DNA from: a virus
Reading direction: 5' to 3' (one strand)
DNA length: 64,000 bases
IMG/VR virus record: IMGVR_UViG_3300027714_000011
Coordinates: 1-64,000 of that record
Shown here: one piece after another, positions 3,366 to 22,623 of the stretch
Numbering within the stretch: the stretch's first letter is position 1
Layout of the letters: the number at the start of each line of letters is the position of its first letter
The notes under the pieces: model-generated
Database searches by the model: none
What the model was told of the DNA's origin: nothing
Seen by the model: only the letters and a program-made list of their open reading frames with translations
Made by a program: the position numbers and the translations under genes

Positions 3366-6300
3366 ATGCCAACTGTTTCAAATCAAAACATAATCATAGT
3401 ATTGCCAGAATTGGCACGTATTATTAGAGGACAAGCAAACAGTATAGATTTGGTGTTACACCAAGACTATATTGGAAACCAATTAAATATTGGTCTTGCA
3501 ACTGAAGTAAAAATAGAACTATATGACGTTAATAACTCTTTAGTCCAAACTGTTTCAAAATCAGGAGCCAATCTTACATATGGATCTCCTAACTCAGAAT
3601 CACAGGGTAAGATTTCTCTAGCATTAACCGCAGATCAAACAGCTGCATTACCGTTTGGAGCTACTGAAGTATCAGGAGCTTTAAAAGCAAAGGTATATGT
3701 AACTCTAGGAATTAATTTAGTTCAATTACCTACACTTAAATTAGCAAACATATATGACGCTGGAGATATTATTGGTGATATAGTTGCTAGTAGATTTACT
3801 TTACCGGGTTCGGTTTATAAAGTAAAATCATTTACTATTGCAGATAAACCAAGTGGAGGTGAAATAATACTGAATGATACCAATCCTTCAGGCGTAACTA
3901 AAATTAGAATATCGGTTACAGATGATAAGGGATATAGAAATGCTTATCTTGAATCTATATTAGAAAATAGAATTGATGTTGATGGAGTATTAGTATCATT
4001 ATTCTTAACTAACGTACATAATAATAGTGAGTATTCTACTTTTGAAATTAAAAGCTGGAGCAGAGTTGATGTATTAAACTCAAATCCTGCATCTCCTTTA
4101 TTAGATGACGATAGTGATGCAATAGAATTAATAGTTGCAGCAGAAGGTAATTCAACTATTGGAACCGAGGTATATGACATATCTACAGGTGATCAGTTAG
4201 GTATCTTTACAGAATCTTACTCTTCACCGCATGGTATATCAATTACACCAAGCGGATTAGCTACAATAACAGACGTTAATAATCTTACATTTTCAGGTGG
4301 AGCAATAGTCAATCAATTAGGAAACGGCAACGTTGATGTTGTATTTCCTTCAGTTGTAGTAACTACTTCTGGAACTAGTGGATCTTCAGGAATTGATGGT
4401 CTTAACGGTGAAGCTGGAACATCTGGAATTGACGGTCTTAATGGAACATCTGGAATTGACGGAACATCTGGAATTGACGGTCTTAATGGAACATCTGGAA
4501 TTGACGGAACATCAGGAATTGATGGTCTTAATGGAACATCTGGAATTGATGGAACATCTGGAACCGATGGTGTAACTGGAGCTAAAGGTGATCAAGGTGA
4601 TGCTGGAGCTAAAGGTGACGTTGGAGCTACTGGAGTACAAGGTATTCAAGGCGTTAAAGGTGATGTTGGAAACGACGGAGCTAATGGAATTGATGGAGTA
4701 GCTGGAACTAATGGAACATCTGGAATTGACGGCATAAACGGAGTTAAAGGTGATCAAGGTGATACTGGAGCTAAAGGCGATACTGGAGTACAAGGTATTC
4801 AAGGTGATCAAGGTATTCAAGGATTATTCGGACATGATGGTATTGATGGAGTAGCTGGAGATCCTGGAAGTGATGGATTAGATGGTGTTGATGGTGCTAG
4901 CGGAACTTCTGGTACTAATGGAGAGAATGGTGCAGCTGGAGCTGACGGTGCTAACGGTGCCGATGGAACTTCTGGTATTAATGGAGTAGATGGAGCTAAA
5001 GGTGATCAAGGCGATACTGGAATACAAGGTGAAGTTGGAGCTAAAGGCGATCAAGGTGAAGTTGGAGCTAAAGGTGATGTTGGAAACGATGGAGCTAATG
5101 GAACATCTGGGATTGATGGTATACGCGGAGCTAAAGGCGATCAAGGTGATCAAGGTGATGCTGGAATACAAGGTATTCAAGGTGAAGTTGGAGCTAAAGG
5201 CGATCAAGGTGATAATGGAACATCAGGTATTAATGGAACATCAGGTATTAATGGAACATCAGGTATTAATGGTATTCAAGGTGATACTGGTCTTAAAGGT
5301 GATCAAGGCGATACTGGAATACAAGGTGTTCAAGGTGTCAAAGGTGATGCTGGAAACAATGGAACATCTGGTATCGATGGTATTCAAGGTATTCAAGGTG
5401 AAGTTGGAGCTAATGGAACATCAGGAATTGATGGTATAAACGGAGCTAAAGGTGATCAAGGCGATACTGGAATACAAGGTGTTCAAGGTGTTCAAGGTGT
5501 TCAAGGTGAAGTTGGAGCTAAAGGTGATCAAGGTGATCAAGGTGTTAAAGGTGATGCTGGAAACGATGGAGCTGATGGATCACAAGGTGTTAAAGGTGAT
5601 GCTGGAAACGATGGAGCTGATGGTAATAATGGAACATCAGGAATTGATGGAGCTAAGGGTGATCAAGGTGATGCTGGTCTTAAAGGAGATCAAGGTGATC
5701 AAGGAGCACAAGGTACTATTGGAATACAAGGCGTTCAAGGTGAAGTTGGAGCTAAGGGTGATCAAGGTGATCAAGGCGTTAAAGGTGATGCTGGTAATAA
5801 CGGAGCACAAGGTAACGATGGAACTAACGGTTCTTCAGGAATTAATGGAGCTGCTGGTAATAACGGAGCACAAGGTAACGATGGAACTAGTGGTTCTTCA
5901 GGAATTAATGGAGCTGCTGGTAATAACGGAGCACAAGGTAACGATGGAACTAGTGGTTCTTCAGGAATTAAAGGTGATCAAGGTAATACAGGTGATGCTG
6001 GAGCCGCAGCGACAGGATCATTAGTTTCTTATAGAATTAAAGTCAATATGTTATCTAACAGTGTTAATTCAACCACACCTATCGCAAACGTATGGTCACC
6101 AGGCGGAGTAGAAATATATAATTCAACCGATGGTTGGTCTGTATCTGGATGGAATATTGCTAGATCAAATAACAATTTAACACTTACTCACACGTTGGCT
6201 AAACCGATATTAATGGGAACAGCACAAGGTAGAAACGGTTCTAACTTATTTGTCTCACAGTTTATTGGTAAAAATGCATCTACTTTATCTATACAAAATG

Positions 6301-6407
6301 TCGATGGAAATGCATATGTAAAATTCAACGGTATAACAAGTATCAATACAGGTGCTGCAACAGGTGGAGCCACAGATGTGATCATAACATTTGTAGTAGA
6401 ATCATAA
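3366..6407 (+). CDS. Collagen-like fibre protein (N-terminal beta-rich domain, about 550-aa Gly-X-Y stalk, C-terminal globular domain)
   Basis: Continuous G-X-Y triplets (GAKGDQGD, GIQGVQ, GTSGIDG) from about 4370 to 6010. Confidence 0.9.
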   Translation: MPTVSNQNIIIVLPELARIIRGQANSIDLVLHQDYIGNQLNIGLATEVKIELYDVNNSLVQTVSKSGANLTYGSPNSESQGKISLALTADQTAALPFGATEVSGALKAKVYVTLGINLVQLPTLKLANIYDAGDIIGDIVASRFTLPGSVYKVKSFTIADKPSGGEIILNDTNPSGVTKIRISVTDDKGYRNAYLESILENRIDVDGVLVSLFLTNVHNNSEYSTFEIKSWSRVDVLNSNPASPLLDDDSDAIELIVAAEGNSTIGTEVYDISTGDQLGIFTESYSSPHGISITPSGLATITDVNNLTFSGGAIVNQLGNGNVDVVFPSVVVTTSGTSGSSGIDGLNGEAGTSGIDGLNGTSGIDGTSGIDGLNGTSGIDGTSGIDGLNGTSGIDGTSGTDGVTGAKGDQGDAGAKGDVGATGVQGIQGVKGDVGNDGANGIDGVAGTNGTSGIDGINGVKGDQGDTGAKGDTGVQGIQGDQGIQGLFGHDGIDGVAGDPGSDGLDGVDGASGTSGTNGENGAAGADGANGADGTSGINGVDGAKGDQGDTGIQGEVGAKGDQGEVGAKGDVGNDGANGTSGIDGIRGAKGDQGDQGDAGIQGIQGEVGAKGDQGDNGTSGINGTSGINGTSGINGIQGDTGLKGDQGDTGIQGVQGVKGDAGNNGTSGIDGIQGIQGEVGANGTSGIDGINGAKGDQGDTGIQGVQGVQGVQGEVGAKGDQGDQGVKGDAGNDGADGSQGVKGDAGNDGADGNNGTSGIDGAKGDQGDAGLKGDQGDQGAQGTIGIQGVQGEVGAKGDQGDQGVKGDAGNNGAQGNDGTNGSSGINGAAGNNGAQGNDGTSGSSGINGAAGNNGAQGNDGTSGSSGIKGDQGNTGDAGAAATGSLVSYRIKVNMLSNSVNSTTPIANVWSPGGVEIYNSTDGWSVSGWNIARSNNNLTLTHTLAKPILMGTAQGRNGSNLFVSQFIGKNASTLSIQNVDGNAYVKFNGITSINTGAATGGATDVIITFVVES

Positions 6408-8530: not shown

Positions 8531-9730
8531 ATGAACATAGGTATCACAGTACACATAGACAATGAAAATGAAAGCATATGGACTAATGGTATTAAATTAA
8601 ATGCACTGTATTTACTAAAGGCTTTAAAGACTATTGGTTATAACGCATATTTAATAAACGCAGGTAAACTGCAAGGATCATATGAGAATAAAGTTCCTTG
8701 GAATATAGAAGAGTTTCCAATCTATAATTATTCAGGAAAAGCAAAAGACACTGATCTTATGATTTGGTTAGGATCAACATATTCAGACGAAAACATTCTA
8801 GATTTTAAGAAAACTGGCCCTAATAAAAAAGTTGTCAAATATACATGTGGTAATAACTACATGAATGACACTGAAGCGGTTGTCTTTGGAAGTGAAATTA
8901 CAGCAGGTTACAATCAAGAGCTAGATGAAGTGTGGTATGTACCTCAACAAGAAGAACTAAACAGAGAATATTATAGAGTACTTCATAATTTACCAGCAAA
9001 CAAAGTGAAACCAGTACCGTTTATATGGGATCCTGTTTTTATAGATGCTACATGTGAATCTTATTATTCTAATGGCACAATAGAAAACAATATACCTATT
9101 CCAATCTATAGACCTGGAAAACCTAATGAAGAAAAGCAGCTAGCATGTTTTGAACCAAATATTGGCGTTATGAAATATCATATAAATAATCTTTTAATAG
9201 CAGAAGATTATCTAAATAAAGGCGGAGATTTTAAAAAATTAAATGTAGTATGTGGCGACAAATTATTGGGAAGCAAATACTATGCGTCTGTGATTAAACA
9301 CACTAAAATATTTAATGTAGATCCTATTAAATTATCATATTTACCTAGATTAAGAGCAGTTGATGCATTGGCTCAATTGGCAGATGTGGTTATTGCACAC
9401 CAACTCACAAACCCTCTTAATTATTCATATTTGGATGCATTGTATCTTCAGTTTCCATTAGTACATAATGCACCAATGATCAAAGATGCAGGCTATTATT
9501 ATCATGGCAATAATATAGGTTCAGGAGCTAGACAACTAAAACTAGCAATTGAAGAGCATGACAATAACATAGAAGAATATATCGAGCGTAGCGAAAATGT
9601 TTTAACTAGATATACTATATTCAATGAAGGTTTATTAGAAACATATAAACAACTAATAGAAACTACTATGGGAATTAAGGATCATAAATTAAGTGGAAAT
9701 TATGATTGGCAAACAAATCTTTATAAATAA
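8531..9730 (+). CDS. DUF2827-like protein, putative glycosyltransferase
   Basis: SIWTNGIKLN, VPFIWDP, FEPNIGVMK, HQLTNPLNYSYLDALYLQFPLVHN motifs as recalled for DUF2827. Confidence 0.65.
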   Translation: MNIGITVHIDNENESIWTNGIKLNALYLLKALKTIGYNAYLINAGKLQGSYENKVPWNIEEFPIYNYSGKAKDTDLMIWLGSTYSDENILDFKKTGPNKKVVKYTCGNNYMNDTEAVVFGSEITAGYNQELDEVWYVPQQEELNREYYRVLHNLPANKVKPVPFIWDPVFIDATCESYYSNGTIENNIPIPIYRPGKPNEEKQLACFEPNIGVMKYHINNLLIAEDYLNKGGDFKKLNVVCGDKLLGSKYYASVIKHTKIFNVDPIKLSYLPRLRAVDALAQLADVVIAHQLTNPLNYSYLDALYLQFPLVHNAPMIKDAGYYYHGNNIGSGARQLKLAIEEHDNNIEEYIERSENVLTRYTIFNEGLLETYKQLIETTMGIKDHKLSGNYDWQTNLYK

Positions 9731-10332
9731 TGAAGATTAACACTAATCGATTAATCTTTAAAAGACTTATCAGAGAGTATGAATTTTTAATAGAAGATTT
9801 AGCAGACATAGAGGTAGCTAATTTAGATATAAAAAATGAGTTTATGCAATCGTTAAATGAGATCGATGATGATGGTGTTTTAGAGAGCGATAACATGGAC
9901 ACTATGGCAGACGATTGGGCTAAAAATATAAAGGAAGTTGAAGAGTCAGAAAAGGAAACTAATAAACATCCAGATTTTAAAAAGTTATTTAGAAAAACAG
10001 TTGTTAAATGTCATCCTGATAAATTAGGTACTGATCTATTACAAGAAGAATTTGAAAAGCTTAAGACGATATATGAAGATATAGTTGAAGCTAATGAAAC
10101 TGAAGATTGGGCTAAATTAATTAGGTGCGCTATTAAGTTAGATATAGAATTACCTGAATCTGCATATGATCAAATCAAGTCTATAGAAGAAAGTATAAAT
10201 AAACTAAAAGAAAAACAAACTACTATTTTAAATTCTACGCCATGGATGTGGTATAAAACGGACGATGGAGATTCTAGGGCAGATATTCTAAAAAAACATT
10301 TAGAATTTATGTCATTATTGACACAAAAATAA
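9730..10332 (+). CDS. J-domain-like (HPD) protein
   Basis: FKKLFRKTVVKCHPDK followed by helical segment. Confidence 0.6.
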   Translation: MKINTNRLIFKRLIREYEFLIEDLADIEVANLDIKNEFMQSLNEIDDDGVLESDNMDTMADDWAKNIKEVEESEKETNKHPDFKKLFRKTVVKCHPDKLGTDLLQEEFEKLKTIYEDIVEANETEDWAKLIRCAIKLDIELPESAYDQIKSIEESINKLKEKQTTILNSTPWMWYKTDDGDSRADILKKHLEFMSLLTQK

Positions 10333-10420: not shown

Positions 10421-13390
10421 ATGTCTCAATTGAAACTAAAACAAATACTTGAATTCATATCAGATTCACCTGTTACTGGTGATGTACTGGCATATAATTC
10501 GGCGACTGGTAAATACGAAAACGGAGCTCTACCAAATACATTTGGTCTTCGATATAAATATAACACTGCAATTACAGGATCAGTTGCAAATGGTTTTTTC
10601 AGATTTGATGATCCATCATCTCCTACCAATGTAACAATAAGTGAAAGAGATTTATTAGGAAATAACGCAATTCCTTCGTTAGTTGCTATGACAGCGTCTA
10701 CAAATGACAGAAAATCTGTCGTTGTTTTTGCAAGCGCTAACGACGGAAATATATCTAAAACATTTTATGTTAAATCTGTTGCGGTTGGTACAAATGAAAG
10801 AGTATTTGAATTAGAGCCTATATCAAGTTCTAGTTGGGGATTAATGACAAATAATGATGAAACATTCATGTTTATTCAACCTATTGGTAACGTTGGTACA
10901 TCTGGTTCTTCTGGAACTAATGGAACTAATGGAACTAATGGTACATCTGGTTCTTCCGGAACAAACGGGACATCAGGAACTAACGGTACAAACGGAACAT
11001 CGGGAACGAATGGAACTAACGGAACATCGGGAACTAGTGGAACTAACGGATCTTCTGGAATTAATGGTACAAATGGGACATCAGGAATTAATGGTACAAA
11101 TGGGACATCAGGAACTAGTGGAACCAATGGAACGAATGGTTCTTCTGGAACTAATGGAAGTTCAGGAACTAATGGGACATCAGGAGCTAATGGATCAAGC
11201 GGATCATCAGGAACGAATGGAACTAACGGGACATCAGGAATAAATGGAGTAAGTTCTTCTATTGAATTAACAGAAGAAGCTGTTACAGGTCTAGAGGGAA
11301 CTCCAGTTAGTGTTGTAAATGTAGGTACAGAGAGTGCTGCTAAATTAGAGTTTACAATTCCAGTGGGTGCAACAGGTTTACGAGGATTACCTGGAACTCC
11401 AGGAACAAGCGGAAGTTCAGGAACGAATGGTTCTTCAGGAACTAATGGAACTAACGGTACATCAGGTTCTTCAGGAACTGATGGAACTTCAGGAACTGAT
11501 GGATCAAGTGGATCTTCAGGAACTAATGGAACTTCAGGAAATGATGGAACAAGTGGAAGCTCAGGTTCTTCAGGTTCTTCTGGAACTAACGGTACTTCTG
11601 GAACTGATGGAACTTCAGGTTCTTCAGGTTCTTCAGGAACAGACGGAACTAGTGGAACAAACGGAACATCAGGTTCTTCAGGAACTGATGGAAGTTCAGG
11701 TTCTTCAGGAACTAATGGAACTAGTGGAACAAACGGAACTAGTGGAACAAACGGAACATCAGGTTCTTCAGGAACTGATGGAACTAGTGGAACTAACGGT
11801 ACATCAGGAACTGATGGAAGTTCAGGTTCTTCAGGAACGAATGGAACAAGTGGAACTAGTGGAACTAACGGTACATCAGGAACTGATGGAAGTTCAGGTT
11901 CTTCAGGAACGAATGGAACTAACGGAACATCAGGTTCTTCAGGAACTGATGGAAGTTCAGGTTCTTCAGGAACTGATGGAACGAGTGGAACTAACGGTTC
12001 TTCAGGAACTGATGGAAGTTCAGGTTCTTCAGGAACTGATGGAACTAGTGGAACAAACGGAAGTTCAGGTTCTTCAGGAACGAATGGTTCTTCTGGAACT
12101 AACGGTACAAATGGTACATCAGGAACGAATGGTACATCAGGAACTAAAGGTGATCAAGGTAATCCAGGTTGGGGTGTTTCAATGCAAGGACAAGTAGCTA
12201 CATCATCAAATTTGCCAGCTACTGGTAATTCAGATGGTGATGCATATATAGTACAATCAGATGATTCACTTTGGGTATTTACACAAGCCGATGGTTGGAT
12301 TGGAGGTGGTTCTATTCAAGGACCACAAGGTAACGCTGGTACTTCAGGAACGAATGGAACTAACGGAACATCAGGTTCTTCAGGAACTAATGGAACTAGC
12401 GGAAGTTCAGGAACTGATGGAAGTTCAGGTTCTTCAGGAACAAATGGAACTAGTGGAACAAACGGAACTTCTGGTTCTTCAGGAACTGATGGAACTTCTG
12501 GTTCTTCAGGAACTGATGGAACTAGTGGAACAAACGGAACTAGTGGAAGTTCAGGTTCTTCAGGAACAAATGGAACTAGTGGAACAAATGGAACATCAGG
12601 TTCTTCAGGAACGAATGGAACTTCAGGTTCTTCAGGAACAAATGGAACTAGTGGAACAAACGGAAGTTCAGGTTCTTCAGGAACGAATGGTTCTTCTGGA
12701 ACGAATGGAACATCAGGAACAAACGGAACTTCTGGTTCTTCAGGTGTTAATGGTCTTGATGGTGTAGATGGTATCTCTGGAACTTCAGGTGTTAGTGGAA
12801 CTTCAGGTTCTTCAGGAACGAATGGAAGTTCAGGTTCTTCAGGAACGAATGGAACTAGTGGAACGAATGGAAGTTCAGGTTCTTCAGGAACGAATGGAAC
12901 TAGTGGAACGAATGGAAGTTCAGGTTCTTCAGGAACTAATGGAACTAATGGTTCTTCGGGTTCTTCTGGTCTTGACGGTGAAACAGGAACATCTAATACA
13001 TATGCAACTGCAATGAACCAATACACAAATACTGGTTCAGATGTACAGCACGCTGATTTATATTTGACAGGTCGTTTACAAAGAGAAATGATAGTAGCAA
13101 ATAACGGAGCAATTCCAGTACAAACAGGCGATGCCTTCATTATTAATGCAGACGGTGTAGTAACTATCAGTATGACTGGATTAAACACTTCATGTGCTGG
13201 TCAATCAGGAACTATTGTAATCGTCAACAGCGCAGGAGGATCAGATTTTAGCCAATTGCCAGCATATATGTTAACACCATCAGGTGCAGATATAGAATTT
13301 GTAACCGAGCCTTATGCTGTTTCAATTATATCATACCATATATTAAGTCAAACGCAAGTACTTTGTAACTATATAGGCCATTTTGCATAA
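10421..13390 (+). CDS. Collagen-like fibre protein with Gly-Thr/Ser-Ser/Asn/Asp triplets
   Basis: Three G-X-Y tracts (GTSGSSGTNGTD) separated by small domains (VVNVGTESAAKLEFTIP; LPATGNSDGDAYIV) common in phage collagen fibres. Confidence 0.85.
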   Translation: MSQLKLKQILEFISDSPVTGDVLAYNSATGKYENGALPNTFGLRYKYNTAITGSVANGFFRFDDPSSPTNVTISERDLLGNNAIPSLVAMTASTNDRKSVVVFASANDGNISKTFYVKSVAVGTNERVFELEPISSSSWGLMTNNDETFMFIQPIGNVGTSGSSGTNGTNGTNGTSGSSGTNGTSGTNGTNGTSGTNGTNGTSGTSGTNGSSGINGTNGTSGINGTNGTSGTSGTNGTNGSSGTNGSSGTNGTSGANGSSGSSGTNGTNGTSGINGVSSSIELTEEAVTGLEGTPVSVVNVGTESAAKLEFTIPVGATGLRGLPGTPGTSGSSGTNGSSGTNGTNGTSGSSGTDGTSGTDGSSGSSGTNGTSGNDGTSGSSGSSGSSGTNGTSGTDGTSGSSGSSGTDGTSGTNGTSGSSGTDGSSGSSGTNGTSGTNGTSGTNGTSGSSGTDGTSGTNGTSGTDGSSGSSGTNGTSGTSGTNGTSGTDGSSGSSGTNGTNGTSGSSGTDGSSGSSGTDGTSGTNGSSGTDGSSGSSGTDGTSGTNGSSGSSGTNGSSGTNGTNGTSGTNGTSGTKGDQGNPGWGVSMQGQVATSSNLPATGNSDGDAYIVQSDDSLWVFTQADGWIGGGSIQGPQGNAGTSGTNGTNGTSGSSGTNGTSGSSGTDGSSGSSGTNGTSGTNGTSGSSGTDGTSGSSGTDGTSGTNGTSGSSGSSGTNGTSGTNGTSGSSGTNGTSGSSGTNGTSGTNGSSGSSGTNGSSGTNGTSGTNGTSGSSGVNGLDGVDGISGTSGVSGTSGSSGTNGSSGSSGTNGTSGTNGSSGSSGTNGTSGTNGSSGSSGTNGTNGSSGSSGLDGETGTSNTYATAMNQYTNTGSDVQHADLYLTGRLQREMIVANNGAIPVQTGDAFIINADGVVTISMTGLNTSCAGQSGTIVIVNSAGGSDFSQLPAYMLTPSGADIEFVTEPYAVSIISYHILSQTQVLCNYIGHFA

Positions 13391-13418: not shown

Positions 13419-16400
13419 ATGAAGAATATAGGATTTTCGAAGATTGATTTCTGGAGTACTGGTAGCGGCGTGGGAACAAGTCACACCACAAACAAGAGTA
13501 CTACGACCACGTGGAGCACTAGTAAATCTACTACAGAACAACGAAGCACAACTAGGTCTACTAAAACAGCGTTCAATACTAGTCAATCTACTAGTACTGT
13601 ATGGACAACTACTTGGGCAACTTCAAAGAATACTTCTACTACATGGAATACATCTCATAGTACAACTACTACTTGGGCAACTTCACAAAGTACGACTACT
13701 ACATGGACAACTACATGGACAACTTCAAGAGGCACTGATAGATTAACAGATAAATCAACTACTACTACTTGGACAACTTCAAGGGGTACTGATAGATTAA
13801 CAGATAAATCAACTACAACTTTTTGGACAACTAAATGGAATACTAGTCAGTCAACGTCAACAGTATGGACTACGGTATGGCAAACTAGTTTAGGAACTGA
13901 GAAATCTACTACAACTACATACAATACTTCTTGGACTACATCATGGAATACTAGTCAATCAACAACTACAGTTTATACAAGTGCGTATAACACTTCTTGG
14001 TCTACTAATAGAGGAACATCTAGATCAACTGATCATTCCACGGTTACTGTGTATACGACTACGTGGTCAACATCCAGAGTAACGTCAACTGCATATACTA
14101 CTTATTTTAACACAACATGGTCAACTAGTCAATCTACTGAACATTCCACAGTTACAGTATATACGACTACTTGGTCAACTAGTAAAGGTACTAATAGAGG
14201 AACATCACATTCTACAACAACTACTTGGAATACAAGTAAAGGAACATCACATTCTACAGTTACAACATATACGACTACTTGGTCAACTAGTAAGGGTACT
14301 AGTAGATCAACTAACCACTCGACTACAACTACATTTAATACAAGCCAGTCGACGAGCAGAGCTACGACTACTGTATATACAACTACATGGCAAACTAGTC
14401 GCGGTACTTCTAGGGGTACAGCACATTCAACGACAACTAAATGGAATACTAGTCAGTCAACAAGCAAATCTACAACAACTGCGTATACTACTTACTATAA
14501 TACAACTAGAGGAACTAGTAGAGGAACTAGTAAAGCCACAACAACAACATGGCAAACTAGTAAGGGCACATCACATTCAACAGTGACTGTATATACAACA
14601 ACATGGCAAACTAATCACGGTACTTCTAGAGGCACGGCGCATTCAACAACAACTAAATGGAATACTAGTCAGTCAACAAGTAGAACTACTACAACGTCTT
14701 ATACTACTTATTATAACACAACTAGGGGAACTTCTAGGGGAACTAGCAAAGCTACTACAACTACATGGTCAACGAGTAGAGGTACATCACATTCAACTAC
14801 TACAGCGTATACAACTACGTTTAATACTAGTAGAGCAACAACTACTGCATGGACTACGTCATGGACTACTACTTTTGGAACTAGTAGAGGTACACAACAT
14901 GCAACAACAACTACGTGGACAACAACATGGTCAACGAGTAGAGCTACAACAACTTCATATACAACTACATTTAACACTAGTAGAGGAACTAATAGAGGAA
15001 CTAGTAAATCTACTACAACTACATGGCAAACCAGTAGAGGTACATCACATTCAACTCAGACAACATATAATACTAGTTGGAACACAACTAGGGCTACAAC
15101 AACGTCATATAATACATCGTGGACTACTACGTTTGCAACGACACATTCAACATCTAGAGCCACTACTACGACGTGGGCAACGAGTAGAGGTACATCGCAT
15201 TCAACTACTACAGCGTATACAACTACGTTTAATACTAGTAAAGCAACAACAACTACATGGACTACTTCATGGACAACCACTTATGGAACTAGTAGAGGTA
15301 CGCAACACGCAACAACAACTGCGTGGACAACAACATGGTCAACGAGTAAATCTACAACAACTGCTTATACTACTTATTATAATACAACTAGAGGAACTAG
15401 TAGAGGAACTAGTAAATCTACTACAACCACATGGGGAACTAGTAAAGGTACATCACATTCAACAGTCACAGTGTATAATACTAGTTGGAATACATCTAGA
15501 AACACGACGACTTCATGGACTACTTCATGGACAACTACGTTTGCAACGACCCATTCAACATCTAGAGCCACTACTACAACGTGGAACACCACTAGGGCTA
15601 CAACGACTTCGTGGACTACTTATTATAATACCAGTAGAGGAACTAATAGAGGAACTAGTAAATCTACTACTACGACATGGCAAACTAGTCACGGTACATC
15701 ACGTTCAACAACGACTACGTATAATACTAGTTGGAACACTAGTAAAGCAACAACGACTTCATGGACAACTTCATGGACAACTACGTTTGCAACGACCCAT
15801 TCGACATCTAAAGCCACTACTACGACGTGGCAAACTAGTCGCGGTACATCACGTTCAACAACAACTACGTATAATACTGCTTGGAATACATCTAAAAACA
15901 CGACCACTACATTTAATACAACAGTTTATACCGTATTCGCAACGAGTAGAGGTACATCAAAGTCAACGACTACCAAATATGGTACATCAAAGTCAACGAC
16001 TACCACATTTGGTACATCACATTCAACAACGACTGCATGGGTTGCTTCTAGAGGTACATCTAAGTCTACGACGACACAGTGGAGTACTGCTTGGAATACA
16101 TCTAAGTCTACAACGACTAGGTATAACACTAGTAAATCAACGACTACTGTATGGGCTACTTCTTGGGCGACGTCTAAGTCAACTACGACTACTTGGTTGA
16201 CATCTAGGTCTACGACCACTACGTTTAATACTAGTAAATCAACGACTACTACGTTTAACACTAGTAAATCAACGACTACATCATGGTCGTATAATGTTGG
16301 TACATCTAGAACGACACTTAAACATTATTCTAAAACAACACTTAAGACGTATAATAGATCAACATATATTGATCGAAGTACAGTATATAATACTAGTTGG

Positions 16401-17054
16401 ACACAATCCTCAGCAATCAACACGGCATGGAGTACTAGTTATTATATAAACACAAAATGGACAACAGGTAGAAGCACAGTATCAGAGGAAATAGAGTGTA
16501 TAGTAGAAGGCTCATTAGTGCATATTTCAACAACACAACAAGTTAAAGTTGAAACATTGCAACCAGGTGATCCTATTTTAACATTAGATGGAACGTTCAA
16601 TCTCGATGATGAGGATTTATTATTTGCATTAAAAGAAGACCAACTTTCCGATATAAAATCAAATGATGATTATATATCAGCAATCATGGTTTCTCAAGTT
16701 ACAGGCGTATGCGATATAAACAACGGTTTATTAAAAACAACACTCAATCACATTCATATTGTAAAAAGAACTGTTCCAGATTCAGAAATTAAAAAATGGA
16801 TTGCAATAGAAGGTTATCAACTAGTGGTTGGTGATATTTTATGGCACATCACTAATGGAGAAATTCCTATAACATCAGTAGCAGTAGACGAAACAAACAT
16901 ATATACTGTATATAAACTAGACGTTGAACCAAATGATGTCTTTTATGCTAACGGTATTTTAACGCATAACAGGAAATGTGATCCGGAGGAATATTGCAAC
17001 CGCCGCAATATATGTTACGATCGATCAAAATGTTTGGACGATGGACAGTTTTAA
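13419..17054 (+). CDS. Giant Thr/Ser-rich repeat protein A with C-terminal Hint domain and Cys-rich tail
   Basis: About 1000 aa of T/S repeats with W/Y/F or R/K/H/Q anchors every 4 or 6 residues, then Hint domain and a 27-aa tail with 4 Cys. Confidence 0.9.
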   Translation: MKNIGFSKIDFWSTGSGVGTSHTTNKSTTTTWSTSKSTTEQRSTTRSTKTAFNTSQSTSTVWTTTWATSKNTSTTWNTSHSTTTTWATSQSTTTTWTTTWTTSRGTDRLTDKSTTTTWTTSRGTDRLTDKSTTTFWTTKWNTSQSTSTVWTTVWQTSLGTEKSTTTTYNTSWTTSWNTSQSTTTVYTSAYNTSWSTNRGTSRSTDHSTVTVYTTTWSTSRVTSTAYTTYFNTTWSTSQSTEHSTVTVYTTTWSTSKGTNRGTSHSTTTTWNTSKGTSHSTVTTYTTTWSTSKGTSRSTNHSTTTTFNTSQSTSRATTTVYTTTWQTSRGTSRGTAHSTTTKWNTSQSTSKSTTTAYTTYYNTTRGTSRGTSKATTTTWQTSKGTSHSTVTVYTTTWQTNHGTSRGTAHSTTTKWNTSQSTSRTTTTSYTTYYNTTRGTSRGTSKATTTTWSTSRGTSHSTTTAYTTTFNTSRATTTAWTTSWTTTFGTSRGTQHATTTTWTTTWSTSRATTTSYTTTFNTSRGTNRGTSKSTTTTWQTSRGTSHSTQTTYNTSWNTTRATTTSYNTSWTTTFATTHSTSRATTTTWATSRGTSHSTTTAYTTTFNTSKATTTTWTTSWTTTYGTSRGTQHATTTAWTTTWSTSKSTTTAYTTYYNTTRGTSRGTSKSTTTTWGTSKGTSHSTVTVYNTSWNTSRNTTTSWTTSWTTTFATTHSTSRATTTTWNTTRATTTSWTTYYNTSRGTNRGTSKSTTTTWQTSHGTSRSTTTTYNTSWNTSKATTTSWTTSWTTTFATTHSTSKATTTTWQTSRGTSRSTTTTYNTAWNTSKNTTTTFNTTVYTVFATSRGTSKSTTTKYGTSKSTTTTFGTSHSTTTAWVASRGTSKSTTTQWSTAWNTSKSTTTRYNTSKSTTTVWATSWATSKSTTTTWLTSRSTTTTFNTSKSTTTTFNTSKSTTTSWSYNVGTSRTTLKHYSKTTLKTYNRSTYIDRSTVYNTSWTQSSAINTAWSTSYYINTKWTTGRSTVSEEIECIVEGSLVHISTTQQVKVETLQPGDPILTLDGTFNLDDEDLLFALKEDQLSDIKSNDDYISAIMVSQVTGVCDINNGLLKTTLNHIHIVKRTVPDSEIKKWIAIEGYQLVVGDILWHITNGEIPITSVAVDETNIYTVYKLDVEPNDVFYANGILTHNRKCDPEEYCNRRNICYDRSKCLDDGQF
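16497..16970 (+). other. Hint (intein-like) autoprocessing domain in protein A
   Basis: Block A CIVEGSLV (Cys1027), block B TTLNH, block F VYKLDVEPNDVFYANG, block G ILTHN followed by Arg; 158 aa, no endonuclease. Confidence 0.9.
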
Positions 17055-17093
17055 ATAAAAGAAAAAGAAAAAGAAAAAGACTTAAATAATTAG

Positions 17094-20000
17094 ATGGCAT
17101 CATACACTACATATTGGAGCGCTTCGAGAAGTGAAATAAGATACAGGAATACCTATCAAAATACTGCGATAGATCAAACTTATAGTAGGTCTACTTCCCA
17201 TACTACAAGGGTCTATTACAACACGTCATGGACTGCTAACGCAACAACGTCATGGACTGCTAACGTGACCACCGAATGGGCCACTTCATATTCAGCATCT
17301 AAGTCTACAACGACTACGTTTAATACATCTAAGTCTACAACGACTACGTTTAATACATCTAAGTCTACAACGACTACGTTTAATACATCTAAGGCCACCA
17401 CTACAGCATGGACTGCAAGTAGAAATACTAGTAGAGCTACTACAACTACATATATTACATCTAAGGCAACCACTACGGCGTGGACTGCAAAACGTAATAC
17501 AACTAGAGCAACGACGACTTCATGGACTACTTCTTGGAATACTTCTAAGGCTACAACGACTTCGTACAGCACATCTAGAAACACAACGACTTCGTATAAT
17601 ACAACGCATTCAACTACTACATCATATAGCACTTATTGGAATACAGCTAGAAATACAACTAGGAGTACTAGTAAAAGTACCTCAACTACATGGTCAACTA
17701 GTCAAAGCACATCGCATTCAACGACTACGTCGTATACGACTTATTATAATACTAGTAAATCAACGACTACGACATATAACACAACATATAACACAACTAG
17801 GGGAACTAATAGAGGAACTAGTAAAACTACCACAACGACATGGTCAACTAGCCAATCTACTAAGCGTTCAACGACTACATCATATACGACTTATTATAAT
17901 ACTAGTAGAGCAACAACTACTGCATGGACTACGTCATGGACAACTACCTTTCAAACTAACAAAGGTACATCGCGTTCAACAACGACTACGTTTAACACTA
18001 GTAGATCAACGACTACGACATATAACACAACATATAACACAACTAGAGGTACATCTAGGGGAACTAGTAAATCTACAGGGACTACTTGGTCAACTAGCCA
18101 ATCTACTAAGCATTCAACGACTACTTCGTATACGACTTATTATAATACTAGTAGAGCAACAACTACTTCATGGACTACTTCATGGGTAACTACTTTTGGA
18201 ACTAGTAGAGGTACATCACATTCGACAACAACTACGTTTAATACTAACCAATCAACTAGTAAATCTACAACTACGAAGTATACTACGTATTACAATACGA
18301 GTAGAGGTACATCTAGAGGAACTAGTAAATCTACAACAACCACGTGGGCAACAAGTAGAGGTACATCACATTCAACGACTACGTCTTATACAACTACGTT
18401 TAATACTAGTAAATCAACGACTACGACGTTTAATACAACATATAACACGGCTAGAGGTACATCTAGGGGAACTAGTAAATCTACCACAACTACATGGTCA
18501 ACTAGTCAAAGTACTAAGCATTCAACGACTACTTCGTATACGACTTATTATAACACTAGTAAAGCAACGACGACTTCATGGACTACATCATGGACAACTA
18601 CTTTTGGAACTAGTAGAGGTACATCGCACTCGACAACGACTACGTTTAATACTAACCAATCAACTAGTAAATCTACAACTACGAAGTATACTACGTATTA
18701 CAATACGAGTAGAGGTACATCTAGAGGAACTAGTAAATCTACCACAACTACATGGGCAACTAGTAGAGGTACATCACATTCAACGACTACATCTTATACA
18801 ACTACGTTTAATACTAACCAATCAACAACGACTGCATGGACTACTTCATGGGTAACTACTTTTGGAACTAGTAGAGGTACATCACATTCGACAACAACTA
18901 CGTTTAATACTTCATGGCAAACAAGTAGAGCTACAACAACATCTTATACTACTTCATGGACTACATATTACAATACAAGTAGAAGTACAGAACATTCAAC
19001 TACTACATCGTATACGACTAAGTTTAACACTAGTAACTCAACGACGACTTCATGGACTACTTCATGGGTAACTACTTTTGGAACTAGTAGAGGTACATCG
19101 CATGCAACGACTACTGTATGGACTACTTCATGGCAAACGAGTAGAGCTACAACAACAGCTTATACTACTTCATGGACTACATATTACAATACAAGTAGAA
19201 GTACAGAACATTCGACAACAACCGTATTCAATACAACATGGTCAACAAGTAAAGCTACAACAACAGCTTATACTACTTCATGGACTACGACATTTAATAC
19301 TAATCAAAGTACAAAACATTCAACTACTACGTCTTATACAACTACGTTTAATACTAGTAAATCAACGACTACGTCATATACTACTTCGTGGACCACGACG
19401 TTTAATACGAATAAATCTACTAGTCATTCAACGACTACTGTGTATACAACTAGTTGGAATACATCTAGGGGAACAAGTAGAGGTACGGAGCATTCAACAA
19501 CAACCACATTTAACACTAATCAGTCTACTGAACATAGTACAACTACAACATACTCGACATCGTGGACGACTTCATGGAACACTAGTCAATCCACTAGTCA
19601 TTCAACGACACATAGTACAACTACTATTTGGGGTACTTCTTTAGGAACAAGTAGATCTACTAATCACTCAACGACAACAACATGGACAACATATTGGAAT
19701 ACTAGTCGAGTTGAGTCGCGTAACACTACGACTACGTGGGTGACACAAGATCAAACAAGTCAGTCAACTGTAACTGAGTGGACAACTTCATGGACAACTT
19801 CATGGAACACAAGTCAATCTACGGTAACTACGTGGACAACTTCATGGACAACTTCATGGAAAACAAGTCAATCTACTAATAAAAGTACAATGACTACGTG
19901 GAACACAACTAAGTCTACTGCGACAGTGTATACAACATCTAGAGTTACTTCTACAACGTGGAATACAAGTCAGTCAACTAATAAAAATACGACAACAACA

Positions 20001-20222
20001 TGGTCGACTTTATATGATGTGACTACTACTTGGACCACGTCTTGGAACACCACTACTACATGGAATACAACTAAAGCTACCACTACCAATTGGACAACGA
20101 GTTATTCAACTGAATACGAAGCAAGAAGAACATGGTATGGAAAAGTCCACACAGGACATGAGATATTCCCTTACGCTACAGTACAACAGTGGAGAGTCAA
20201 TTCTTATTTAGGTCGACCATAG
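17094..20222 (+). CDS. Giant Thr/Ser-rich repeat protein B, antiparallel complement of protein A
   Basis: Same repeat grammar; anchor pattern is the reversed, class-swapped pattern of protein A. Confidence 0.9.
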   Translation: MASYTTYWSASRSEIRYRNTYQNTAIDQTYSRSTSHTTRVYYNTSWTANATTSWTANVTTEWATSYSASKSTTTTFNTSKSTTTTFNTSKSTTTTFNTSKATTTAWTASRNTSRATTTTYITSKATTTAWTAKRNTTRATTTSWTTSWNTSKATTTSYSTSRNTTTSYNTTHSTTTSYSTYWNTARNTTRSTSKSTSTTWSTSQSTSHSTTTSYTTYYNTSKSTTTTYNTTYNTTRGTNRGTSKTTTTTWSTSQSTKRSTTTSYTTYYNTSRATTTAWTTSWTTTFQTNKGTSRSTTTTFNTSRSTTTTYNTTYNTTRGTSRGTSKSTGTTWSTSQSTKHSTTTSYTTYYNTSRATTTSWTTSWVTTFGTSRGTSHSTTTTFNTNQSTSKSTTTKYTTYYNTSRGTSRGTSKSTTTTWATSRGTSHSTTTSYTTTFNTSKSTTTTFNTTYNTARGTSRGTSKSTTTTWSTSQSTKHSTTTSYTTYYNTSKATTTSWTTSWTTTFGTSRGTSHSTTTTFNTNQSTSKSTTTKYTTYYNTSRGTSRGTSKSTTTTWATSRGTSHSTTTSYTTTFNTNQSTTTAWTTSWVTTFGTSRGTSHSTTTTFNTSWQTSRATTTSYTTSWTTYYNTSRSTEHSTTTSYTTKFNTSNSTTTSWTTSWVTTFGTSRGTSHATTTVWTTSWQTSRATTTAYTTSWTTYYNTSRSTEHSTTTVFNTTWSTSKATTTAYTTSWTTTFNTNQSTKHSTTTSYTTTFNTSKSTTTSYTTSWTTTFNTNKSTSHSTTTVYTTSWNTSRGTSRGTEHSTTTTFNTNQSTEHSTTTTYSTSWTTSWNTSQSTSHSTTHSTTTIWGTSLGTSRSTNHSTTTTWTTYWNTSRVESRNTTTTWVTQDQTSQSTVTEWTTSWTTSWNTSQSTVTTWTTSWTTSWKTSQSTNKSTMTTWNTTKSTATVYTTSRVTSTTWNTSQSTNKNTTTTWSTLYDVTTTWTTSWNTTTTWNTTKATTTNWTTSYSTEYEARRTWYGKVHTGHEIFPYATVQQWRVNSYLGRP

Positions 20223-20296: not shown

Positions 20297-21208
20297 ATGG
20301 AAATGTTTAACAAAAAGGTTCTTAAGGAAAGAATAGGACCTCTTAAGAAAAACGATAAACTTAACGCACTCGAACAAGTAGAGAGATACGTACTTAGAAA
20401 ATGTAAAGAACTTGGATTAGAACATAGTTATGATGTAATAGCAGAAGAGATGCCATACTTTAAAACTATGGGATATACTGAATATGCTACGTGTTTTATG
20501 TTACAGCCCTTAAATTTAAAAATGAGAACTGCTCAGATCAATGATGCATATCACGATAACGTGGATAATGTATCAGATTGGGCTGGTTATTTTAGAGCAA
20601 ATGTTCAAGATAAGGTTGCTAATAAATATCAATCTCGTAAAGAGAATTTTAGTCAATGGCCTGCAAAACCAGTTTTAGTAGTTTTACCAGGATCTAATAA
20701 ACTTAAATCAAACTGTTGTTTAAATAAATTAATAAAGGTTGCTGAAGAAAACAAAGGTAACATTTATTTTAAACCGCATCCTATCACAACACATGCTGTA
20801 ATAGGCGAAATTAAAGATTTATTTGGTGAAGAATCTATTTTACCAAGAGACATTGATCTTTATCACTTCATGCAACAAGCCGAAACAGTATACACTACAC
20901 ATATTAGCGAAAGTGCATTATATTCTTTAGTGTTGGGAAAAACAGTAGAACCAATAGATGTTTGGAACAATGTACATCAAGGTTCATTTTATACTGTAAA
21001 TTCTGCACTATTTGATAATGCTAGCAATGTTGATGAATGGATAAATAGAGTTTTTTCTAGTCCTAAATCAGGTATTATTAATCCAGCATTGGATACGGAT
21101 TGGAAAGATAAAGTAGATAAGTACATGACATATATGTACGAAAAAAGAGAATTCTATAAAGGATGGTTTTTGGACCTTCCACCTAAAGTAAAACGTAACA
21201 AAGATTAA
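20297..21208 (+). CDS. Capsule-biosynthesis-like (GT-B) glycosyltransferase-like protein
   Basis: LVVLPGS...IYFKPHP...VYTTHISESALYSLVLGKTV resembles the C-terminal domain of KpsS/KpsC-like enzymes. Confidence 0.5.
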   Translation: MEMFNKKVLKERIGPLKKNDKLNALEQVERYVLRKCKELGLEHSYDVIAEEMPYFKTMGYTEYATCFMLQPLNLKMRTAQINDAYHDNVDNVSDWAGYFRANVQDKVANKYQSRKENFSQWPAKPVLVVLPGSNKLKSNCCLNKLIKVAEENKGNIYFKPHPITTHAVIGEIKDLFGEESILPRDIDLYHFMQQAETVYTTHISESALYSLVLGKTVEPIDVWNNVHQGSFYTVNSALFDNASNVDEWINRVFSSPKSGIINPALDTDWKDKVDKYMTYMYEKREFYKGWFLDLPPKVKRNKD

Positions 21209-21217
21209 ACCAAAAAA

Positions 21218-21646
21218 ATGCAAAGAAACATTAAATTTAATGAGAATGTCGGAGATGATGGACACTTGGTATCACCAGTATTAAAGAATGGTTGCAAAAA
21301 CTATCTAATCGATATTGATGGAACTATTACAGATGACGTACCAAATGAAGAGCCAGAGAGAATGGCAGTAGTTCAACCTTATAAAGATTCTGTAGAAACA
21401 CTTAACAGGTGGTATGACGAAGGTCATATTGTAACCTTCTTTACATCAAGAACTGAAGAAGTTAGAGATATCACAGAAACATGGTTAAATGAGCACGGTT
21501 ATAAGTATCATGGTTTATTAATGGGCAAACCTAGGGGTGGTAATTACCATTGGGTTGATAATCACATTGTCAAAGGAACTAGATATGAAGGTGTTTGGTC
21601 TGACCTAGTAAAAGAAGAAAGAATGATAGAAGTCTTTCCTTCATAG
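21218..21646 (+). CDS. Small HAD-superfamily phosphatase
   Basis: IDIDGT, FFTSR, MGKPRG, WVDN. Confidence 0.85.
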   Translation: MQRNIKFNENVGDDGHLVSPVLKNGCKNYLIDIDGTITDDVPNEEPERMAVVQPYKDSVETLNRWYDEGHIVTFFTSRTEEVRDITETWLNEHGYKYHGLLMGKPRGGNYHWVDNHIVKGTRYEGVWSDLVKEERMIEVFPS

Positions 21647-21657
21647 ATATATAATAC

Positions 21658-22623
21658 ATGAAGAAGATACGCACATTTAATGATTTTATCAACGAAGCTG
21701 AGGAAGCTCAAGATCTACATAAGATTTATTTAGCATTTGATCCAGATTTGGGACATCGTTTCTGGTCTTATAAAGATTTTGCTGGCGATAAGTTTTTTAT
21801 CAGATTAACACCTGAGACATATAAGGATATAGAAATAAATAAGGATTATCCAGTTCTTACTTATAATTCAGATACTGTGCAAATGTTAATTGATAAGGAT
21901 CTTATTAGTACTGATAATGTGTATAACCTTCCAGAATTTATTAAAAATTCAGGATCTAAGAAAGAATTTCATAAAATAGTTGATGGTGATGATAACATCC
22001 CTAAAACTACAAGTGATCAAGATGATGCAATTAAACTTTTAGGATTTCCAATTATTGCAAAACCAGCAGAAGGACATTCTGGAATTGGTATTGTTATTAT
22101 GAAAGATCAAAAGGAATGGGATGCTACAGACCACGATAAGTTGGATGTGTATTCTCAGTATGTAGATAAAAAATCAGAGCACAGATTCTTTACATTTAAA
22201 GGAGAACCTTTCTTTTGGCAAGAAAGACAACCTACAAATGATAAGTCTAAGAATGGTGGTGGTAATCCAGACGAAAAAATGGGATTCAATTATATTAAAA
22301 GAAACTCTGATAAAACACCACAAAAATATAGAGATCTAATAAAGAGATTTGGTGCAATGTTCTCAGATTTACCTTATATATGTTTTGATATAATGGAAGA
22401 TCAAGATGGTAAATTATACATCATTGAAAGTAACAGTATGCCAGGTGTGCCGTTCGATGCAACTGTTGCAATATATAGAACTCTATTTAATGACTTTTAT
22501 AAAAGAGGCGTGGACGGAAAAACAGATTTAAAATTAAAAGAATATTCGGATTTTATGTGTAAGAAATCAATGACACTTGATGGTGGAGATAGATTTAAAT
22601 TAGGCACAGATCTAGAAGATTAA
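21658..22623 (+). CDS. ATP-grasp (RimK-like) ligase with N-terminal capsid-targeting-like peptide
   Basis: IPKT, FPIIAKPAEGHSGIGI, QYVDKKSEHR, FDIMEDQDGKLYIIESNSMPG; N-terminus MKKIRTFNDFINE. Confidence 0.8.
   Translation: MKKIRTFNDFINEAEEAQDLHKIYLAFDPDLGHRFWSYKDFAGDKFFIRLTPETYKDIEINKDYPVLTYNSDTVQMLIDKDLISTDNVYNLPEFIKNSGSKKEFHKIVDGDDNIPKTTSDQDDAIKLLGFPIIAKPAEGHSGIGIVIMKDQKEWDATDHDKLDVYSQYVDKKSEHRFFTFKGEPFFWQERQPTNDKSKNGGGNPDEKMGFNYIKRNSDKTPQKYRDLIKRFGAMFSDLPYICFDIMEDQDGKLYIIESNSMPGVPFDATVAIYRTLFNDFYKRGVDGKTDLKLKEYSDFMCKKSMTLDGGDRFKLGTDLED

Follow-up and report, generated by a model that had tools for sequence, protein, structure and literature searches.

The DNA analysed here, called the window below, comprises the first 64 kb of an IMG/VR viral contig of 78.5 kb (IMGVR_UViG_3300027714_000011; CheckV completeness 27%). 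Two adjacent genes of the window, A and B, encode giant Thr/Ser-rich proteins, and the arm of protein A, read backwards with its aromatic and basic anchor residues exchanged, reproduces the arm of protein B. This complementarity is conserved in related loci, and there the two genes co-vary in a mirrored manner. A and B are likely to pair antiparallel, in full-length register, as a two-chain β-ribbon surface fibre, and it is very probable that they zip up as a single fibre, thin and exceedingly long. A preliminary description of this DNA had proposed antiparallel pairing of A and B in one coded register. This core is upheld by a unique correlation peak, by co-varying lengths, by mirrored insertions and deletions (indels), and by residue pairs of the opposite face at the same i+j, where residue i of A lies opposite residue j of B. 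For the tape-measure or ruler role, which had been offered beside a virion whisker, no support was obtained.

The register of A and B

The open reading frames of A (1211 aa) and B (1042 aa) agree in coordinates and length with those given previously. Both sequences were converted to strings of aromatic (Trp, Tyr, Phe) and basic/polar (Arg, Lys, His, Gln) anchors, and the strings were cross-correlated at all offsets. With A reversed and the classes exchanged, a single sharp maximum was observed at i+j = 1026, with 205 matches, or 209 when the whole A arm (residues 1–1026) is used. The runner-up registers, located at ±36 residues, gave 126 and 123 matches. The other comparisons peaked at 86 (forward, same class), 73 (reverse, same class) and 65 matches (forward, classes exchanged). 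Shuffling of the anchor units of B resulted in 47.4 ± 3.2 matches, with a maximum of 60 in 2000 shuffles (z = 55.7 for the observed peak). The reversed and exchanged reading of A thus reproduces B far above the shuffled null, and the cross-correlation against shuffled repeat units that had been suggested as a check shows one unique peak. The alignment is gapless over approximately 1000 residues.

The anchors are arranged on a simple lattice. In the main lattice of A, the basic-to-aromatic step takes 6 residues (n = 58), and the aromatic-to-basic (n = 56), basic-to-basic (n = 45) and aromatic-to-aromatic (n = 40) steps take 4 residues, with 3 exceptions. The same four steps in B number 56, 53, 40 and 47, with 5 exceptions. 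The spacing rule reported at first is therefore valid for nearly all the anchors of both chains. The asymmetry between 6 and 4 residues would be consistent with the handedness of a twisted ribbon.

The paired spans were originally given as H22–W956 of A and K70–Y1004 of B. These spans are correct in themselves, but the pairing actually extends to R1018–W8. The additional pairs at the non-repetitive tip are R964–W62, K972–W54, R980–W46, Y990–H36, W994–R32, W1004–Q22, Y1008–R18, W1014–R12 and R1018–W8, and the last of them lies within 8 residues of the predicted cleavage site of the Hint domain of A. At the other end, the base of the duplex (A 1–21 and B 1005–1042) is uncoded, and both segments hold motifs conserved in the orthologues.

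The symmetry of A and B exists at the protein level only. No long DNA inverted repeat was found between the two genes. An origin at the DNA level was rejected for this reason, and also by reasoning from the code, as Thr codons cannot become Thr codons by reverse complement.

Pairing at the residue level

In the region A 22–956, the anchor face contains 256 Thr–Thr pairs and about 199 aromatic–basic pairs, with about a dozen exceptions. Among these anchor pairs, His is located opposite Tyr in all 41 cases and Gln opposite Trp in all 22 cases; in the overall count, Gln has Trp opposite it in 23 of 24. Phe is found opposite Arg or Lys only, and a Trp–His pair never occurs (chi-square p = 6e-26). 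On the anchor face, the mutual information reaches 1.68 bits when i+j = 1026, whereas no other register tested exceeds 0.76 bits. The exclusive His–Tyr pairing and the Gln–Trp preference are observed in all the long A/B pairs described below: the five others contain 89 further His pairs, with no His–Trp and no His–Phe among them. The code that was presumed to set the register is thus borne out, but it is richer than the binary one first described, since His–Tyr, Gln–Trp and Phe–Arg/Lys are distinguished.

The opposite face also pairs at i+j = 1026. Off-face Tyr is located opposite Gly in 15 of 17 cases (the Gly background is 6.9%), and Asn–Ser pairs are frequent. Each of the three kinds of step is self-complementary in the antiparallel direction; for example, K-S-T-T-T-T-W and W-N-T-S-K each lie opposite themselves, and R-G-T-S-R lies opposite W-T-T-[ST]-W. 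Both faces pair at one sum, and the anchors all have even spacings, which would place them on a single face. This is what continuous in-register antiparallel β pairing predicts.

The composition of the off-anchor face, almost all Ser, Thr, Asn, Gly, Ala and Val, suits tight packing. The AB duplex may thus be regarded as the repeating unit of a thicker bundle, for example three AB pairs forming a six-stranded tube, with the small-residue face inward and the aromatic–basic ladder outward, comparable to the fold-back needle at the tip of the T4 long tail fibre. A lone two-stranded ribbon has exposed edges, and the collagen-like proteins encoded beside A are obligate trimers. Phage fibres are usually trimers, and the T4 gp37 needle is a trimer with seven iron atoms along it (PMC6957217). 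We consider the bundle possible but doubtful, as complementarity is found in only one register. No second pairing interface was seen at small register offsets (offsets ±2 are empty). Moreover, the arms have no His-x-His metal motifs, and nothing in the sequence fixes the copy number.

Related loci and mirrored co-variation

With B as query, 28 matches were obtained among 1.84 billion representative proteins, and some of them are A-like with the same C-terminal Hint domain. An alignment of five Hint homologues led to 80 viral loci, and the single Hint sequence alone led to none. In nine of the 80 loci, an A-like gene is directly followed by a Thr-rich B-like gene, and each pair shows its own single reversed and exchanged peak (z 4.7 to 41). 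The arm lengths range from approximately 150 to 1040 residues (Table 1). The family is recurrent in marine viral metagenomes.

Table 1. Two-gene pairs and their registers.
Pair	A arm (aa)	B (aa)	i+j	Matches	z
Window	1026	1042	1026	209	55.7
L009	890	909	892	148	36.5
L010	937	940	928	183	38.1
L011	971	974	962	185	38.3
L013	971	974	962	187	41.3
L014	413	410	406	64	25.3
L015	192	171	182	22	9.3
L018	193	171	182	20	9.1
L021	193	171	182	22	10.0
L016	166	148	155	16	4.7

According to the seven distinct pairs (166/148 to 1026/1042 aa), the arm lengths of A and B are correlated with r = 0.9998. This is the opposite of the independent length variation that had been named as an argument against pairing. 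Compensating indels, for which a search of orthologous pairs had been proposed, were found between L010 and L011, which are approximately 83% identical. Compared with L010, the A protein of L011 has insertions of 24 aa (649–672) and then 10 aa (779–788), and its B protein has insertions of 10 aa (198–207) and then 24 aa (281–304). The indels are equal in size and reversed in order, and they are paired under i+j = 962 within the alignment ambiguity caused by the repeats. Seven compensated double substitutions were also detected between L010 and L011, for example Arg–Trp to Trp–Gln; in others of the seven, anchor pairs are displaced by two positions in both chains together. Between L011 and L013, a 4-residue shift in A 882–894 is mirrored in B 69–86. 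As far as sequences can tell, this comparative co-variation is the decisive evidence for pairing.

Internal repeats and paralogy

Both arms consist in part of two 36-residue units, X with the anchor order AABBBABB and Y with AABAAABB, where A and B are the aromatic and basic classes. Y is the reversed and exchanged form of X, so the XY unit is its own reversed and exchanged form. For this reason the centres of the two proteins resemble each other in the forward reading too (B 392–630 against A 510–740, 72% identity over approximately 240 aa). This raises the question of whether the complementarity is a by-product of paralogy, that is, of duplicated genes made of such palindromic units that do not pair physically. 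The equal duplication lags in the two genes fit this explanation as well as the forward similarity and the XY palindrome do. Paralogy predicts, however, that A pairs with itself as well as with B, and self-pairing is weak (86 matches for A–A and 88 for B–B, against 205 for A–B). Where A contains an array of six X units, the opposite stretch of B contains six Y units, and these two kinds of unit differ when both are read forward. The non-repetitive ends pair as well, the indels of close relatives are mirrored in reverse order, and the residue-level rules hold on both faces. Paralogy as the only explanation is already largely refuted, and we find it scarcely credible.

Several points weigh against the paired fibre. 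The central palindromic XY units allow forward paralogy to feed the match and the matched duplications, so the matched 408-nt duplications of A and B are weaker evidence than they appear. The internal repeats inflate the pair counts, and the independent events are fewer than the pairs. A two-stranded ribbon of this length without a hydrophobic core has no solved precedent. How many chains make up the fibre, where it sits on the virion and what it does are proposals drawn from the features described.

Structure prediction was not informative. ESMFold2 with A 827–1026 and B 1–200 gave a score of 0.00, which is no evidence for or against pairing. AlphaFold2 was also given, as a single sequence, a 599-aa construct that artificially reads from the tail of A and the Hint domain through the spacer into the head of B (translation table 6, which reads TAA and TAG as Gln); the mean pLDDT was 35.6, and only short meander strands resulted. 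The AlphaFold2 model of the small relative P0018 (8-sequence alignment) is also of low confidence (mean pLDDT 49). It shows two 29-residue strands (43–71 and 119–147; sum 190, against the code-derived 192) around a moderately confident globular domain, and it was not used as evidence. As the predictors gave no usable model, the proposed β-ribbon geometry is derived from sequence logic and co-variation.

Proposed architecture

In the proposed fibre, residue i of A would lie opposite residue 1026−i of B over approximately 1000 residue pairs, forming a 'protein duplex' approximately 0.3 µm long. The anchor face would be a ladder of approximately 200 cross-strand pairs (Trp/Phe/Tyr–Arg/Lys, Tyr–His and Trp–Gln) with Thr–Thr pairs between them, and the opposite face would present small polar residues with Asn–Ser and Tyr–Gly pairs. 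The chain that bears the aromatic residue alternates in a largely aperiodic order; this should permit one register and prevent slippage by the 10- or 36-residue repeats. The conserved N-terminus of A and the C-terminus of B would form the base. The C-terminus of A and the N-terminus of B would form a blunt tip, where the Hint domain, of the bacterial intein-like (BIL) type, would process A between Glu1026 and Cys1027. The product would be a very long, strongly cationic (approximately +145) surface fibre whose genes lie in the company of collagen-like fibre genes. Both the gene context and the relatives favour a fibre on the surface. The stoichiometry, virion location and Hint chemistry are to be read as predictions.

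Single-chain fold-back relatives

About a dozen of the 28 matches are small proteins of 180–300 aa with a Thr-rich N-terminal arm, a Tyr/Gly/Trp-rich globular domain and a Thr-rich C-terminal arm. Each shows its own reversed and exchanged peak near i+j = length + 10 (z 4–10). The self-peak suggests that the N- and C-terminal arms form a stalk by pairing and that the domain sits where the chain turns. The set includes P0008, P0011, P0014, P0018, P0022, P0024–P0027 and P0030, which look like miniature stalked tip proteins. P0008 and P0018 were scanned against PHROGs, and no match was found.

Two larger proteins, of 1306 and 1416 aa (P0009 and P0010 are this pair), fold back about residues 980 and 1040 according to the code (z about 8). 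Their fold-back coded arm has approximately 330 residues per strand, and a globular domain is inserted before the arm. Of the two, only the 1416-aa protein P0009 was scanned, and its N-terminus matches a baseplate-wedge subunit in PHROGs (phrog_17744, E = 4e-170); the N-terminal sequence of P0010 is similar. The N-terminal motif of A resembles that of the small single-chain proteins. Judging from these sequences, the A/B pair resembles a fold-back fibre arm that has been divided between two genes, and the fold-back relatives support a surface-appendage role of A/B.

The Hint domain and the tip of the proposed fibre

In the alignment of five homologues, Cys1 and the residues H111, H183 and N184 of the Hint fragment are invariant, and Cys1 is present in nearly all of the 80 related loci. 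In a profile search against the PDB, the best match was Tetrahymena BIL2 (6TMM/6Y75, E = 6e-7); MJ0781, the DnaX mini-intein and 2LWY were also matched. The Pfam gathering scores for Hint families were not reached (PF14890, 16 bits with a cut-off of 35.8; PF13403, 16.2 bits with a cut-off of 28.4), and PF01079 matched only one of five family members (E = 0.0014). A canonical splicing intein is excluded, as the +1 residue after His-Asn is Arg, not Ser, Thr or Cys, and a 27-aa tail is followed by a stop codon. The domain shares Cys1, the block-B His, the terminal His-Asn and the profile match with BIL/Hint domains such as BIL2 and the Clostridium thermocellum BIL (2LWY). It differs from them in having no Ser/Thr/Cys after His-Asn, in scoring below the Pfam thresholds and in its predicted position at the tip of a fibre duplex.

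The C-terminal Hint domains of the loci L009–L088 make up a large family. They are attached to phage structural proteins, and many follow a poly-Gly linker (GGGG|C). Of 51 distinct domains of this family, 22 have Lys as the second residue (+2) after His-Asn and 9 have it as the first (+1), and many tails consist of just two residues, the second being Lys. These x-Lys endings point to a Lys-dependent self-processing or ligation step. The four-Cys tail motif recurs in L009–L013 and P0012, and the tails of the short pairs have only 4–8 residues.

In BIL2, a C-terminus becomes linked to the amine of a Lys by an isopeptide bond (PMC8616854). Of the outcomes conceivable for A, the first-ranked is that the C-terminal end of the arm is passed to the Lys of its own tail, so that the conserved four-Cys peptide would remain at the tip; plain self-cleavage is ranked second. 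In the third, A would be welded to B: the N-terminal amine of B would attack the thioester at Glu1026, and the duplex would become a covalent hairpin. The geometry in the window suits such welding, since Cys1027 makes Glu1026 the final arm residue, and the predicted cleavage site coincides with the register: Ala2 of B would be opposite Glu1024 of A, and a two-residue turn would be left. Furthermore, the Hint domain is located at the tip in every two-gene pair found and is absent from the single-chain fold-back relatives, and the reaction of BIL2, which is its nearest relative among solved structures, connects a C-terminus with an amine (PMC8616854). The offset between register and cleavage site is not conserved, however, being 0 in the window and +2, −7, −9, −10 and −11 in other pairs; the conserved feature is thus a roughly blunt tip, not an exact junction. 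The N-termini of B also vary (Met-Ala, Met-Pro, Met-Ser), with no common nucleophile. The Lys at +2 or +1 in 31 of the 51 domains, most of them without a partner chain, favours tail-Lys transfer or self-cleavage. Welding of A to B is unlikely on these grounds.

Comparison with known systems

Among solved structures, the T4 gp37 needle comes closest in function and topology; its chain runs out and back in antiparallel strands to form a long thin rod. Its fold-back topology was reportedly described by Bartual and co-workers in 2010. The single-chain relatives of A/B resemble gp37 in holding a globular domain at the turn. In gp37, one chain of approximately 100–200 residues per subunit carries His-x-His iron sites, whereas A/B consists of two gene products with approximately 1000 pairs and is roughly ten times longer. 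Neither arm has an H.H motif or sequence similarity to gp37, and the explicit aromatic–basic code and unique register are features of A/B.

Designed β-hairpins of 12–20 residues are Thr-rich and are stabilized by cross-strand Trp–Trp pairs ('tryptophan zipper') or by aromatic–Lys/Arg pairs. They share the principle of A/B, namely Thr strands with aromatic/cation pairs on one antiparallel face. Cross-strand and diagonal pairs have been studied in hairpin peptides (PMC10096425). The designed hairpins are intramolecular, whereas A/B would be a natural, intermolecular system of approximately 1000 pairs in which the pair orientation is used as positional information.

Collagen-like fibres (PF01391), which are encoded in the same gene cluster, are repeat-coded, very long, thin and multi-chain, as the A/B fibre would be. 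In collagen, three identical chains of Gly-X-Y repeats run parallel and staggered in a triple helix, whereas A/B would be heteromeric, antiparallel and of β type. A and B have no Gly-X-Y repeat and no Pfam match, whereas both neighbouring collagen-like proteins match at E = 1e-85.

No description of this pairing code or design was found in the literature, Pfam or PHROGs. The balance tips slightly towards a protein analogue of a nucleic-acid duplex, with a small cross-strand alphabet (Arg/Lys–Trp/Phe/Tyr, His–Tyr, Gln–Trp, Thr–Thr and Gly–Tyr), a length tunable between approximately 50 and 350 nm by mirrored insertions, and a Hint domain that seals or caps the blunt end. If the chains pair, A/B is a heteromeric antiparallel β 'duplex' whose register over approximately 1000 residues is set by a readable code, and no solved or published counterpart was found. 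It would be a new fibrous protein architecture, and it would explain how a phage builds and tunes very long, thin appendages. The pairs would provide natural data on cross-strand preferences beyond the scale of any peptide study. The code, being evolvable and ready-made, would be reusable for programmable protein nanostructures and addressable protein assemblies. The family also marks a blind spot: it is unrecognized by Pfam and PHROGs and has no confident AlphaFold2 or ESMFold2 models, yet it recurs in marine viral metagenomes.

Composition and gene context

The features of the region are listed in Table 2. A and B belong to no family in Pfam or PHROGs, and megablast and tblastn searches against 50,697 phage records gave no match among isolated phages.

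Table 2. Features of genes A and B and of their neighbours in the window.
Feature	Position	Strand	Remarks
Collagen-like fibre protein (~1000 aa)	3366–6407	+	PF01391, E~1e-85
Collagen-like fibre protein (~1000 aa)	10421–13390	+	PF01391, E~1e-85
Gene A, 1211 aa: base motif, coded Thr/Ser arm, Hint domain, Cys-rich tail	13419–17054	+	Orthologues in L009–L021
A residues 1–21, N-terminal 'base' motif (MKNIGFSKIDFW...)	13419–13481	+	Conserved in orthologues; outside the pairing code
A coded arm, H22–R1018	13482–16472	+	58% Thr and Ser; anchors every 4 or 6 residues, single face
A tandem duplication, 408 nt (136 aa), aa 441–559 / 577–695	14739–15503	+	Pairs with the B duplication
A Hint (bacterial intein-like) domain, C1027–N1184	16497–16970	+	Cys1, block-B His and terminal His-Asn invariant
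A 27-aa tail after His-Asn: Arg-Lys, then four-Cys motif	16971–17051	+	Conserved in long orthologues
A–B spacer, 39 nt, purine-rich, (AAAGA)n	17055–17093	+	A and B in the same frame; TAA and TAG between
Gene B, 1042 aa: coded arm and C-terminal base segment	17094–20222	+	Open reading frame; orthologues
B coded arm, W8–Y1004	17115–20105	+	Opposite A R1018–H22 at i+j = 1026
B duplication, 408 nt, aa 294–448 / 430–584	17973–18845	+	At positions pairing with the A duplication
B residues 1005–1042, C-terminal 'base' segment	20106–20219	+	RQWRVNSY.G motif conserved; uncoded
303-aa protein, downstream of B	20297–21208	+	In 9/9 related loci, 55–78% identity; phrog_26179, unknown function

The arms of A and B contain 58–60% Thr and Ser, no Pro and no Cys. 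Each arm has approximately 80 Arg and Lys against approximately 10 Asp and Glu, which gives the duplex a net charge of approximately +145. The basic residues of the arms are opposite aromatic rings, not acids, so the fibre would be strongly polycationic.

With such a composition, A and B might also form a heavily O-glycosylated, mucin-like and mostly disordered brush, in which Thr and Ser serve glycosylation by neighbouring transferase-like genes. The conserved 303-aa protein downstream of B is consistent with this, as its Atlas model resembles KpsS/LipB-type capsule transferases (TM 0.63; a lead only), and a DUF2827 gene is located upstream. Mucin-like domains are typically Pro-rich, whereas the arms have no Pro at all. 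The strict lattice of 4 and 6 residues, the mirrored co-variation and the unique register would be without purpose in a disordered chain. The brush is thus highly improbable. Glycosylation of the folded ribbon is compatible with the two-chain fibre preferred here, and the 303-aa neighbour may possibly glycosylate the Thr/Ser arms, although its model provides a lead only.

A read-through that joins A and B was rejected, as two in-frame stop codons (TAA and TAG) are present between them and no recoding signal was found. In two marine runs, 66 nt around the stop codon of A are exchanged for an unlike stretch of equal length.

The long open reading frames of the window are all located on the + strand, and the GC content is approximately 32%. 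Baseplate wedge and hub proteins are encoded in the window, which indicates a contractile tail and a probably large genome for a phage. The source is an uncultured marine contractile-tailed phage. The A/B junction region was detected at least partially in 20 runs (nine studies) of marine or seawater metagenomes, with at least half of the sampled words in 15 of the 20. Contigs from four independent marine runs span 16220–17325, linking the final part of A to the first part of B, and the contigs from these runs fragment within the A/B repeats.

The A/B pair is located within a block of fibre genes. The C-terminal domain (approximately 130 aa, about residues 860–989) of the collagen-like protein at 10421–13390 is found directly upstream of A in nine of nine related loci, and it is the only part of this protein that is kept there. 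The collagen-like upstream gene of L009 encodes less than 200 aa, so its length is independent of the A/B length. The region 8531–10332 encodes two proteins, one that belongs to DUF2827 (E = 3e-75) and one of 200 aa that weakly matches DnaJ. The former is kept in L010 and L011 and the latter in L009–L011, and they could be fibre modification or chaperone genes. After the 303-aa gene, a HAD-like phosphatase and an ATP-grasp protein are encoded at 21218–22623, and both are kept in L009–L013.

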